A DNA stretch of 64,000 nt from Candidatus Thorarchaeota archaeon (GTDB lineage: Archaea > Asgardarchaeota > Thorarchaeia > Thorarchaeales > Thorarchaeaceae), in contig JAOUFI010000001.1 in the NCBI GenBank assembly GCA_029858305.1, forward strand, positions 64,039 through 128,038. The letters are read 5' to 3'. Under the pieces are notes generated by a model. The model was not told where the DNA came from, made no database searches, and worked only from the letters and a program-made list of their open reading frames with translations. This document shows, one piece after another, positions 1,155-33,909 of the stretch (positions are counted from its first letter, which is position 1; every line of letters begins with the position of its first letter). The position numbers and the translations under genes were made by a program.

Positions 1155-4278
<3,124 letters not shown>

Positions 4279-32608: not shown

Positions 32609-32851
32609 TTAAGAGATAATTTCTGAGATTATTGCACGATATATAGTAGAACCATCTGAAAGCCCTCTCACAGTCAAGCGCTTCCCAAGATGCGATGCAA
32701 ATTCTTCAGAACCATAGTCTGCAGAAACAGCTTCCCAAGGAAGAATCGCTGAAAGTCTGTATTCGATTTCCTCATCAGTTGTAATCACATATTGGTCCGA
32801 TATTTTTGAAAGAAGTCCCGTAATGATGATCTCTTCCATAGTAGCTCTCAA
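32609..32851 (-). CDS. hypothetical 80-aa acidic protein
   Basis: ORF with plausible composition. No family recognised. Confidence 0.4.
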   Translation of the reverse strand: MRATMEEIIITGLLSKISDQYVITTDEEIEYRLSAILPWEAVSADYGSEEFASHLGKRLTVRGLSDGSTIYRAIISEIIS

Positions 32852-32919
32852 CCTGAAAGATCTGCCTTTTTGATAGTCACATCTTGTGACTTCATCTTGT
32901 GTCCCTTAGAAGTGGCTTC

Positions 32920-32930
32920 GCTATATATAC
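32920..32930 (+). promoter_or_regulatory. TATA-box-like element GCTATATATAC upstream of the micropeptide cluster
   Basis: Centred about 36 nt upstream of the ATG at 32962. The identical 11-mer occurs at 36829-36839 with the same geometry ahead of the ATG at 36868. Confidence 0.35.
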
Positions 32931-32961
32931 TAATTCTGAGCAGTATTTCTTGTGAACTATT

Positions 32962-33066
32962 ATGGCTCTAGCAACTAACAACCGGAACACATCTGTGCTG
33001 AAGAACAAGACTGGCCGAGTTTACTCGACCGACGCAATCACCTATGCCTACCAGTATCGGAGGTAA
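32962..33066 (+). CDS. micropeptide 1 (34 aa) MALATNNRNTSVLKNKTGRVYSTDAITYAYQYRR
   Basis: Below the track cutoff. It shares the MAL start and the C-terminal STDAIT-AY-YR with the next ORF. 9 of the 12 aligned C-terminal codons differ only synonymously. Confidence 0.6.
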   Translation: MALATNNRNTSVLKNKTGRVYSTDAITYAYQYRR

Positions 33067-33072
33067 ATTATC

Positions 33073-33159
33073 ATGGCTCTATTAAAAAAGACAAGCAAGA
33101 ACACCTACAATAAGAGAATCTCTACTGATGCGATTACTCATGCTTACATGTACAGGTAG
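33073..33159 (+). CDS. micropeptide 2 (28 aa) MALLKKTSKNTYNKRISTDAITHAYMYR
   Basis: GGAGG lies 10 nt upstream, inside the end of ORF 1. Paralogue of micropeptide 1. Confidence 0.6.
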   Translation: MALLKKTSKNTYNKRISTDAITHAYMYR

Positions 33160-33165
33160 ATTACA

Positions 33166-33273
33166 ATGATATCTGAGAAGACATCTTTCAAGAATCATCC
33201 TACTACATCCAACGATAAGGCAAAACGTCGTTGTTTGACAAATGAAGAAGTGCTCTTACTCGAGGCGACATGA
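33166..33273 (+). CDS. micropeptide 3 (35 aa) MISEKTSFKNHPTTSNDKAKRRCLTNEEVLLLEAT
   Basis: Same AGGTA-ATTA-ATG junction as ORF 2. Weak similarity to ORF 2 (KTSKN vs KTSFKN). Its 3' end lies inside the terminator hairpin. Confidence 0.4.
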   Translation: MISEKTSFKNHPTTSNDKAKRRCLTNEEVLLLEAT

Positions 33274-33291
33274 GCACTTCTTACTTGTTTT
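33245..33291 (+). terminator. 11-bp hairpin plus T-run ending the micropeptide unit
   Basis: AAGAAGTGCTC (33245-33255) pairs perfectly with GAGCACTTCTT (33272-33282). The loop is 16 nt, and the hairpin is followed by ACTTGTTTTCG. Confidence 0.5.
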
Positions 33292-33306: not shown

Positions 33307-33909
33307 TTAGCCATCAGTCTTCATGACCCAACGAACGAGTTCTGAGTGCATAGCATTTTCCTTGAAGAATTCATCACGATATGAAGTACTCTTGAATTCG
33401 AGAAGAATATGCTGCATACCAGCATCAAAGCCGATGATCTTCACAGATCTTGCAAGAGCATTTGGTCGGAAGACAATTACAGTCATGACCATAGACAGTA
33501 TGAAGATTGCTACGAAAATTGTCACCCATGGAGAAATCAGGCGCCCCCTTGATATCGAATCACCCAAGAAAATTAGTCCGAAGAACATGAACGCCATAGC
33601 CAGTCCATCTACTATTAAACAGAGGGATTTGTATCGATCCTCTCCTTCATCAGTGTAATAATGATCAGCACAGACTTGGATGGGTAGAACTTTGAGATTG
33701 GGTTGCGGGATGCCTCCCTTTCTTCGTACTGATGGATTATAATGGGGATCCCATTCACGTCGAAGGTATTGAGGTCGTCCTGTAACTATAGTCATTCGAG
33801 ATAGTGCTGTTGCACAAGCTCCGCAGACAGGGCAAGTTTTCGGAAATCGCGCTCTAGATAGATCTACACTAACAATGGGTTCATCAAAGTAATGCTTCTT
33901 TGGACTCAT
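33307..33909 (-). CDS. membrane protein with N-terminal zinc-ribbon-like CPVCG motif
   Basis: 200 aa with CPVCGAC...C...H, then two TM helices (LIVDGLAMAFMFFGLIFL; WVTIFVAIFILSMVMTVIVF). Confidence 0.5.
   Translation of the reverse strand: MSPKKHYFDEPIVSVDLSRARFPKTCPVCGACATALSRMTIVTGRPQYLRREWDPHYNPSVRRKGGIPQPNLKVLPIQVCADHYYTDEGEDRYKSLCLIVDGLAMAFMFFGLIFLGDSISRGRLISPWVTIFVAIFILSMVMTVIVFRPNALARSVKIIGFDAGMQHILLEFKSTSYRDEFFKENAMHSELVRWVMKTDG

Follow-up and report, generated by a model that had tools for sequence, protein, structure and literature searches.

Small proteins of about 20-40 amino acids (aa) that act in trans are known from Methanosarcina mazei, where they bind glutamine synthetase or GlnK/AmtB. 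They are encoded by single genes and serve nitrogen regulation. Head-to-tail genes of about 20-35 codons, partly paralogous and leaderless, make up aureocin A70 (aurABCD) and the staphylococcal phenol-soluble modulins (PSM-alpha1-4), whose products are hydrophobic or amphipathic membrane-active helices that come with dedicated exporters or immunity genes. The precursor peptides PqqA and MftA have about 20-35 aa and a conserved, Tyr-containing C-terminal segment. In TnaC, SecM and the fungal arginine attenuator peptide, the last 10-15 residues are conserved, and the end of the open reading frame (ORF) overlaps the next signal. Here, we describe a locus with likenesses to each of these systems in a 64,000-nucleotide (nt) stretch of the Candidatus Thorarchaeota contig JAOUFI010000001.1 (positions 64,039 to 128,038), called the window below. 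It consists of three short ORFs (ORF1, ORF2 and ORF3), which are very probably translated micropeptide genes under selection. The comparison of related sequences indicates that the locus is an autonomous tricistronic operon of a previously unannotated micropeptide family. The mode of action that we propose is that of the M. mazei small proteins; there is no sequence similarity to them, however, and in contrast to those single genes, we find a three-gene cassette with candidate operators of its own in another phylum.

Related loci were gathered by synteny, for which contigs encoding homologs of the flanking membrane protein were fetched, by scans of genomes and metagenomes with a degenerate pattern and by a profile search. 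The scan pattern consisted of the ORF2 tail and its stop and allowed TAY MGN TRR; ORF1 and ORF3 lie outside it. In total, about 22 distinct loci with this peptide family were found, so that homologous small ORFs are present in relatives. The order ORF1-ORF2-ORF3 with near-constant sizes recurs in about 20 loci and was met by all three search routes. The loci occur in three genomic contexts, type A (as in the window), type B and type C, and the genomes OWC2 and CAYHAA01 carry two operons each, one of type A and one of type B. Where the flanking membrane protein is 65-98% identical to that of the window, the same small ORFs adjoin it. At locus L004 (69% identical), ORF1 and ORF2 are kept and ORF3 is gone. 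At L007 and L008 (53% identical), the small ORFs and an 80-aa acidic gene next to the operon are both missing, while the other genes are syntenic.

The scan of 185,579 species-representative genomes gave 16 matches, eleven of which are from Thorarchaeota or other Asgard metagenome-assembled genomes (MAGs) and show the full three-ORF arrangement. The remaining five, all bacterial, were rejected as chance matches together with three from metagenomes, as there is no small ORF at the match. The metagenome scan provided eight further real loci, and no match to the pattern was found in a viral sequence collection. When 1.84 billion representative proteins were searched with a profile of the window ORF1 and ORF2, the matches were 13 members of this family (eleven peptides of 29-37 aa and over-extended gene calls of 59 and 70 aa) and one 2297-aa protein without an individually significant stretch. 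The profile matches led to the added loci L036-L040. Organism labels on the labelled loci outside the divergent L030 and L037-L040 read Thorarchaeota, Promethearchaeota or "uncultured archaeon". The peptide family is unannotated and, in the collections searched, confined to Thorarchaeota-like Asgard archaea.

ORF1 and ORF2 are paralogs. Members of the ORF1 class have 34-35 aa and end in [ST][TL][DE]AI[TG][YF]A[YF]xYRR, and those of the ORF2 class have 28-29 aa and end in ISTDAIT[YH]AYxYR. ORF3 (35-38 aa) is a separate peptide with its own terminus, T-x-E-E-V-L-[LM]-[LW]-E-A-T, and is present in 17 of the 20 tabulated loci as well as in L036 and L038. Divergent loci depart from this scheme in several ways. 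L030 has a third ORF1/2-type copy upstream, MSTNVQSKNNLALKYVNRGRKMTNEALYYAFLTRSL, and its ORF3 contains an internal TAA stop, yet the ORF3 C-terminus and the hairpin are retained. L037 carries three ORF1/2-type copies with an unrelated ORF in the third place, L038 has the termini AYMTVVR, ALVYFRR and AEVLALEAT, and in L039 two ORF1-type genes stand alone, with a promoter for each. As ORF3 is lost in L004 and broken in L030, it is dispensable in some lineages.

Selection was measured as the ratio of nonsynonymous to synonymous substitution rates (dN/dS) by the Nei-Gojobori method. For the last 13 codons, dN/dS is 0.14-0.17 in ORF1 and 0.10-0.16 in ORF3; the range of 0.04-0.13 in ORF2 is inflated by ascertainment, a bias that arises because loci were picked by a pattern at the amino-acid level. 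The synonymous rate dS is 0.4-1.4 in these tail comparisons (about 1 for ORF1 and ORF3), and whole-ORF dN/dS is 0.2-0.4. The four loci found purely by synteny served as a check that is independent of the pattern. Among them, the differences at codon positions 1, 2 and 3 amount to 0.10, 0.15 and 0.46 for ORF1, to 0.04, 0.08 and 0.53 for ORF2 and to 0.15, 0.00 and 0.51 for ORF3. The third codon position diverges 3-10 times more than positions 1 and 2, with the pattern-independent loci included. Hence, the synonymous pattern noticed in the original prediction still holds when more copies are aligned, and its claim of purifying selection on micropeptide genes that are translated from a self-contained operon is borne out by orthologous loci and codon-level selection.

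Readings shifted by one or two bases gave dN/dS values of 0.6-2.1; for ORF1, the two shifted frames have 1.46 and 0.68, compared with 0.40 in the annotated frame. On the opposite strand, the open stretches range in length from 35 to 101 codons across the loci, and their first codon position is the most variable one. The fold of the whole transcript is like that of shuffled sequences (z = -0.6), with structure confined to the 3' hairpin. No Rfam family reached its gathering score over the locus; the best match below threshold was SECIS_5 at 33237-33289 of the window (20.8 bits versus a gathering score of 50, E = 0.3). Taken together, dN/dS, the codon-position pattern and the lack of RNA structure indicate that the locus is protein-coding in the three annotated frames, and there is no sign of the untranslated RNA that had been considered as a possibility. 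The spacer between ORF1 and ORF2 is 4, 5, 6 or 8 nt, so that all three relative frames occur. In 7 of 19 loci, the two ORFs do not share a frame, and a single read-through ORF is therefore rejected.

In each peptide, it is chiefly the last 12-13 residues that are conserved. The N-termini differ in sequence and length (peptides of 22 to 37 aa), and the variable N-terminal parts have dN/dS values of 0.3-0.7, with about 0.3 for that of ORF3. The N-terminal part of ORF1, MALATNNRN.SVLKNK, is kept between types A and C. The tail of the ORF1/ORF2 type has the consensus T-x-A-[ILV]-x-x-A-[YF]-x-Y-R. Over 34 such tails (12-residue core), the conservation moment has its maximum at exactly 100 degrees per residue, and T2, A4, [ILV]5, A8, [YF]9, Y11 and R12 share one helix face. 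A4 is present in all 34 peptides and A8 in 31 of them. Variability is highest at positions 6 and 10, which lie on the opposite face, and position 7 holds an aromatic residue, interchangeably Y, H or F. At the centre of the conserved face, A-x-x-x-A is a small-xxx-small motif, a typical surface for tight helix packing. Single-sequence AlphaFold2 (AF2) models place a helix at residues 23-32 of ORF1 with low confidence (predicted local distance difference test score, pLDDT, of 65) and at residues 26-33 of ORF3 (pLDDT of about 90). From the models and the periodicity, we infer that each peptide has a disordered N-terminal tail and ends in a short helix (two to three turns) with conservation on one of its faces.

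The products of ORF1 and ORF2 are hydrophilic and basic (isoelectric point, pI, of about 10). That of ORF3 differs between contexts, being neutral in type A and acidic, with a charge down to -4.3, in type B. The grand average of hydropathy (GRAVY) is -0.82, -0.74 and -0.82 for ORF1, ORF2 and ORF3, without a hydrophobic stretch. As had been noted from the sequence, no family is recognisable. At E <= 10, Pfam and NCBIfam gave no family for the three window peptides, nor for ORF1 and ORF3 of type B; at E <= 1, PADLOC and PHROGs gave none for the window peptides, and at E <= 10 no PDB sequence matched ORF1. The three peptides concatenated found nothing in a protein search of 5.8 billion clusters, an exact look-up of ORF1 found nothing, and no description of the peptide family was found in literature searches. 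Some candidate features were also dropped. PqqA-like E-x-x-x-Y, PIP-box, acidic dileucine and LIR-type tail motifs were rejected as key positions vary. A size-compensating covariation between ORF1 position 6 (T/G/R) and ORF3 position 9 (L/W/A) fits types A and B and L030; it is broken by L036 (E/W) and L005 (A/L) and was not used.

Within the window (about 42% GC), the three ATG-initiated ORFs lie in one frame of the forward strand in a list of ORFs of at least 20 aa (Table 1). Their layout between a TATA-like box and a perfect 11-bp hairpin was reproduced with all coordinates, and the earlier statements on the starts and endings of ORF1 (STDAITYAYQYRR) and ORF2 (STDAITHAYMYR) check out. The back-translated motif T-D-A-I-T-x-A-Y-x-Y has two matches in the 64 kb, which are the tails of ORF1 and ORF2, with 0.00 expected by chance. 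Recounting the 12 aligned codons of these tails gave exactly the proposed 9 synonymous, 2 replacement and 1 identical. A direct repeat of 30 nt (32941-32970 and 33052-33081, 73% identical) covers the region before the start and the first codons. As it precedes each ATG, the duplicated unit takes in the leader before each start. The proposal of a tandem duplication thus stands for the paralogs ORF1 and ORF2, and the junctions GGAGGTAAATTATCATG and ACAGGTAGATTACAATG on which it drew are both found in the window; it does not extend to ORF3, which is a distinct peptide without the shared motif. Moreover, the function of the junctions as Shine-Dalgarno-like sites explains their conservation at least as well as a trace of duplication.

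Table 1 Features of the three-ORF operon and its surroundings (positions in the window)
Feature	Position	Strand	Remarks
ORF1	32962-33066	+	34 aa, MALATNNRNTSVLKNKTGRVYSTDAITYAYQYRR; pI 10.3, hydrophilic; paralog of ORF2
ORF2	33073-33159	+	28 aa, MALLKKTSKNTYNKRISTDAITHAYMYR; pI 10.1; best conserved of the three
ORF3	33166-33273	+	35 aa, MISEKTSFKNHPTTSNDKAKRRCLTNEEVLLLEAT; unrelated to ORF1/ORF2; terminus EEVL[LM][LW]EAT
Candidate operator, perfect palindrome GTCACA-TCT-TGTGAC	32876-32890	.	Sole perfect copy in the window
Extra direct half-site ATCTTGTG	32894-32901	.	3' of the palindrome GTCACA-TCT-TGTGAC
TATA-box-like element GCTATATATAC	32920-32930	+	Conserved AAGTGGCTTC before it
GTGA, Shine-Dalgarno-like	32952-32955	+	6 nt 5' of the ORF1 start
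GGAGGT, Shine-Dalgarno-like site of ORF2	33059-33064	+	Corresponds to the two C-terminal Arg codons of ORF1
TACAGGTAGAT, probable ribosome-binding site of ORF3	33151-33161	+	Last two sense codons of ORF2, TAG and 2 bases
Hairpin, 11-bp stem, 16-nt loop	33245-33282	+	Arms 33245-33255 and 33272-33282, 100% complementary
T-rich tract TTGTTTT, probable transcription stop	33285-33291	+	3' of the hairpin
Convergent membrane-protein gene	33307-33909	-	Next gene after the operon; 200 aa

Shine-Dalgarno-like elements complement the 3' end of archaeal 16S rRNA, the gene of which lies outside the window. Before ORF1, GTGA(A/T) is found at a similar distance in types A and B. The junction of ORF1 and ORF2 always reads (C/A)GGAGGTA(A/G), followed by ATG after a spacer of 4-8 nt. 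The spacer between ORF2 and ORF3 is 6 nt, in frame, in 16 of 17 loci. The stops of ORF1 vary between TAA and TAG, and TACAGGTAGAT is identical in 20/20 loci, though the scan pattern admitted other Tyr, Arg and stop codons. The simplest reading of this identity is that TACAGGTAGAT would serve as ribosome-binding site of ORF3; low-level read-through of its TAG, giving an ORF2-ORF3 fusion, may also occur. As the junctions are probable ribosome-binding sites, the terminal R or RR and the TAG are constrained at the nucleotide level too. The position of these sites inside the ends of the preceding ORFs suggests coupled translation.

The hairpin folds better than shuffled sequences (z = -3.7). Its 5' arm encodes E-E-V-L of ORF3, and its 3' arm holds the TGA stop. 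The perfect stem of the proposed terminator is present, with a T-tract after it, and the description needs the correction that the hairpin takes in the ORF3 stop and part of its coding sequence. The 9-bp core GAAGTGCTC/GAGCACTTC is kept in types A and B, where 84% of cells pair versus 31-52% with a slid partner. L005 shows one clean compensatory change from G-C to A-U; support from covariation is modest because most columns are invariant. A tract of 3-7 T follows the hairpin in all loci. As oligo-T acts in archaeal transcription termination, hairpin and T-tract are a probable terminator.

At the 5' end, every type-A and type-C locus has a TATA-like element about 32-42 nt upstream of the ORF1 ATG. 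In archaeal promoters, a TATA box lies upstream of the transcript, and by analogy this element would act as the promoter. The palindrome GTCACA-N3-TGTGAC with an extra half-site occurs at promoters of types A and C and is nearly invariant in all type-A loci. A second palindrome, GGTTTG-N5-CAAACC, abuts the TATA box at type-B and some type-C promoters, and its centre often holds a GTCACA half-site. In 322 kb of fetched DNA, 16 of 18 sites of the first kind (at most one mismatch; contexts A and C) and all 17 of the second are within 450 nt of a peptide gene. As these sites are homologous, the counts show that the operators travel with the cassette and not that the occurrences are statistically independent. 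We regard the palindromes as candidate protein-bound operators; they point to a dedicated transcription factor and possibly to a regulon. They accompany the peptide promoters in all three contexts, and L039 has one of each kind for its two adjacent genes. In type C, repeated TGGTCAC motifs, e.g., TGGTCAC-N4-5-TGGTCACAGAA, are located between the peptide gene and the MFS transporter gene (L037 5150-5235; L039 5112-5185). TGGTCAC is the reverse complement of the promoter half-site.

The three contexts have different neighbours. In type A, the operon lies between genes for a desulfoferrodoxin and the membrane protein, with an ECF S-component, a GNAT acetyltransferase and a transketolase nearby; the window has all of these, with the GNAT gene assigned to Acetyltransf_3. 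In type B, a divergent winged helix-turn-helix (wHTH) gene flanks it on one side and a convergent Zn-ribbon/SAM-methyltransferase gene on the other, with TrmB and tandem profilins nearby. In type C, it lies between hydrolase/3HCDH genes and an MFS transporter gene. There is no neighbour gene common to contexts A, B and C; in types A and B, the gene that follows points towards the operon. These three unrelated contexts support the autonomy of the operon. The membrane protein, GNAT and transketolase genes remain syntenic in relatives without the operon. The 80-aa acidic gene (32609-32851, - strand), which is divergent from the operon and belongs to no family, has an intact copy in four loci only, namely the window, L002, L003 and L023; L004 and L020 carry truncated forms, and it is unrecognisable in L010, L013, L029 and L033. 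In several loci, it has decayed while the operon is intact. Hence, it looks like a decaying lineage-specific gene and not like an operon partner, and a relationship to the type-B wHTH gene was rejected as the two are unrelated. None of the named window neighbours is a functional partner, and a partnership with the flanking membrane protein, the GNAT or the 80-aa acidic protein was rejected, given the other contexts and the relatives without the operon.

The membrane protein has no Pfam family. It contains a CxxCxxC cluster, distant Cys/His residues and two hydrophobic segments, which makes a putative zinc ribbon plausible. It falls into about 90 protein clusters, and all clusters with an organism name are from Asgard MAGs, nearly all labelled Thorarchaeota. 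Near the type-B operon of L011, two adjacent profilin-like genes (about 1500-2600) lie some 1.3-2.1 kb upstream, beyond the wHTH gene. One of them is a Pfam Profilin (E = 1.4e-5); the second owes its assignment to clustering with the first. A DUF167/YggU gene and TrmB regulators are located close to this operon as well. Elsewhere in the window, an archaeal 23S rRNA gene is located at 1162-4271 on the - strand. The 64 kb contain no 16S rRNA or tRNA gene, and the rRNA genes appear to be unlinked.

For the function of the locus, we tentatively favour trans-acting micropeptides that dock by their helices. Transcription would start just 3' of the TATA box, controlled by a factor that binds the palindromic operator of the cassette, and would end at the hairpin and T-tract. 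Each cistron would use its own Shine-Dalgarno-like site, two of which lie within the last codons of the preceding ORF, and the three peptides would probably be made together in a fixed proportion. They would act in trans as small proteins. With their conserved helix faces, they would dock onto each other to give an ORF1/ORF2/ORF3 hetero-oligomer, onto a larger partner encoded elsewhere, or both. The basic tails of ORF1 and ORF2 would contact an acidic surface or nucleic acid.

Several points weigh against this proposal. No partner was found, and no gene is shared by contexts A, B and C. As the ORF1 type stands alone in L039, and as ORF3 is missing or broken in L004, L030 and L037, an obligate complex of three subunits is not family-wide. 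C-terminal conservation up to the stop is also expected of a nascent peptide that acts in cis. As the terminal R or RR, the TAG and the codons for E-V-L are under nucleotide constraint, part of the peptide conservation is not peptide selection. In addition, the AF2 model of ORF1 has low confidence. The explanations that compete with helix docking in trans are each contradicted by at least one tested feature.

An arrest or leader function, in which the conserved C-termini would stall the ribosome near the stop and so control the next cistron or the formation of the hairpin, is unlikely. It would account for the peak of conservation in the last 12-13 residues up to the stop (tail dN/dS of 0.04-0.17 versus N-terminal values of 0.3-0.7) and for the Shine-Dalgarno-like site of the next cistron in or beside the last codons, i.e., within the footprint of a stalled ribosome. 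The ORF3 stop lies within the conserved hairpin, and in type C an MFS gene of the same orientation lies downstream (at about 200 nt in L039) and could be regulated. In types A and B, however, the operon ends at hairpin and T-tract with the next gene convergent, so that there is nothing downstream to regulate, and no alternative RNA structure was found (whole-transcript z = -0.6). The ORF1 N-terminus is conserved between A and C, and N-terminal dN/dS is below 1 throughout (0.3-0.7). The helical periodicity with a variable face fits a folded docking helix better than a segment lining the ribosomal tunnel. The likeness to TnaC, SecM and the arginine attenuator peptide thus ends with the missing regulated gene in A and B and with the N-terminus conserved within subfamilies. 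To our knowledge, three successive conserved ORFs are not a known arrest or leader arrangement.

Precursors of ribosomally synthesised and post-translationally modified peptides (RiPPs) or of peptide cofactors are improbable to a similar degree. Under this reading, the core peptide would be the Tyr-rich tail, and its maturation would fall to enzymes from other parts of the genome. Tandem paralogs of about 30 aa with an aromatic-rich C-terminal segment recall PqqA and MftA, and there are several paralogs per locus and per genome. In contrast to those systems, no maturase is nearby, as none of the three contexts has a radical-SAM, YcaO, P450, peptidase or exporter gene beside the operon. The exchange of Y, F and H at the aromatic positions speaks against cross-linking at one particular residue. 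The peptides also lack the E-x-x-x-Y spacing of PqqA, with D/E and Y/H/F at the corresponding sites, and the helical periodicity suggests a folded interface.

We consider it still less probable that the locus is a selfish or antagonistic cassette, either toxin/antitoxin-like or a set of antimicrobial peptides in the manner of leaderless bacteriocins or PSMs. Its compact size (about 450 bp), its own promoter and operators, its three contexts, its duplication within genomes and its absence from some relatives would suit such a cassette. Two cationic peptides (ORF1 and ORF2) ahead of a neutral to acidic one (ORF3) are compatible with it, and the tandem small paralogs (three copies in L030 and L037) resemble aureocin A70 and PSM-alpha. 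The peptides, however, are strongly hydrophilic (GRAVY -0.2 to -0.8) and basic, without a hydrophobic or membrane-active segment, and the contexts share no transporter or immunity gene. Unlike aurABCD and PSM-alpha, the archaeal operon also contains a non-paralogous third peptide. There is no PADLOC or PHROG match and no match on viral contigs, and the synteny of each context is stable across species, which gives no hint of mobility. An origin from a mobile element was rejected for the same lack of viral, PHROG and PADLOC matches and for want of convincing flanking repeats.

It is very unlikely that the peptides act as free HbYX-type (hydrophobic-Tyr-any residue) ligands, with the M-Y-R end of ORF2 binding the alpha-ring pockets of the 20S proteasome and opening its gate. 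In 20/20 three-ORF loci, the last residue but one of ORF2 is Tyr (MYR in 13, IYR in 1, TYR in 4, KYR in 2), and its free X-Tyr-Arg end is like the HbYX motifs of PAN, Cdc48 and Blm10/PA200, which are active as free peptides of 6-7 residues, also on archaeal 20S (PMC12352868). The motif is not family-wide in our loci, however: ORF1 always ends in Y-R-R with an antepenultimate Tyr, divergent ORF2-type members end in YRR, FRR or TVVR, and T or K precedes the Tyr in 6 of 20 loci, so that only a majority of ORF2 copies qualifies. As TAC-AGG-TAG is fixed as probable ribosome-binding site, Y-R need not reflect peptide function, and ORF3 would be left unexplained.

That the locus does not comprise three genes at all but a noncoding RNA with chance ORFs, an antisense gene or a protein of about 104 aa made by TAA/TAG read-through is largely refuted and hardly credible: the common frame of all window ORFs, the in-frame TAG between ORF2 and ORF3 in all loci, the 70-aa "fusion" P0103 in a public library, the antisense stretch of 101 codons at one locus and the weak SECIS_5 match on the UGA hairpin would speak for it, but ORF1 and ORF2 lie in different frames at 7 of 19 loci, P0103 is a gene call with TAG as Gln to which the L036 DNA with its normal TAG does not translate, codon-position and dN/dS patterns fit the annotated frames only, no Rfam family reaches threshold and the transcript z is -0.6, the antisense stretches fluctuate with their first codon position the most variable, and selenocysteine is rejected as SECIS_5 is under threshold, the sequence after UGA is conserved only as a hairpin arm and not as protein, and ORF3 of L030 stops with TAA.

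Genes of fewer than 40 codons are mostly missed or filtered in archaeal annotation. In public data, only ORF1-type genes of about 29-37 aa of the family have been called, sporadically, and two calls are wrong due to alternative genetic codes. In P0103 (L036 1142-1354; 70 aa), TAG is read as Gln, which creates the false ORF2-ORF3 fusion, and in P0101 (L037 5001-5242), TGA is read as Trp. The 5' end of P0105 seems to be extended through the promoter region. Such mis-called versions are a caution for small-ORF mining, for which the locus is a clean test case based on codon-level evolutionary signatures. It also demonstrates that overlapping signals, i.e., Shine-Dalgarno sites and a terminator hairpin within coding sequence, can inflate the apparent conservation of a peptide.

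For the biology of the Thorarchaeota, which belong to the archaeal group closest to eukaryotes, the finding means that they keep a dedicated and probably separately regulated three-peptide cassette under strong purifying selection, in some genomes twice. As peptides of this size can be synthesised chemically, they offer a cheap experimental handle on Asgard cell biology. Possibly, though we advance this with reserve, the cassette represents a so far undescribed kind of Asgard-specific micro-protein system in which stoichiometric peptides of about 3-4 kDa form a complex through Ala-centred helix faces and modulate a core machine of Thorarchaeota. The target would be, for example, a nucleic-acid-bound or acidic protein that is met by the basic tails. 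As a more unorthodox variant, the tails may double as free helices and as nascent-chain signals that set the ratio of ORF1:ORF2:ORF3.

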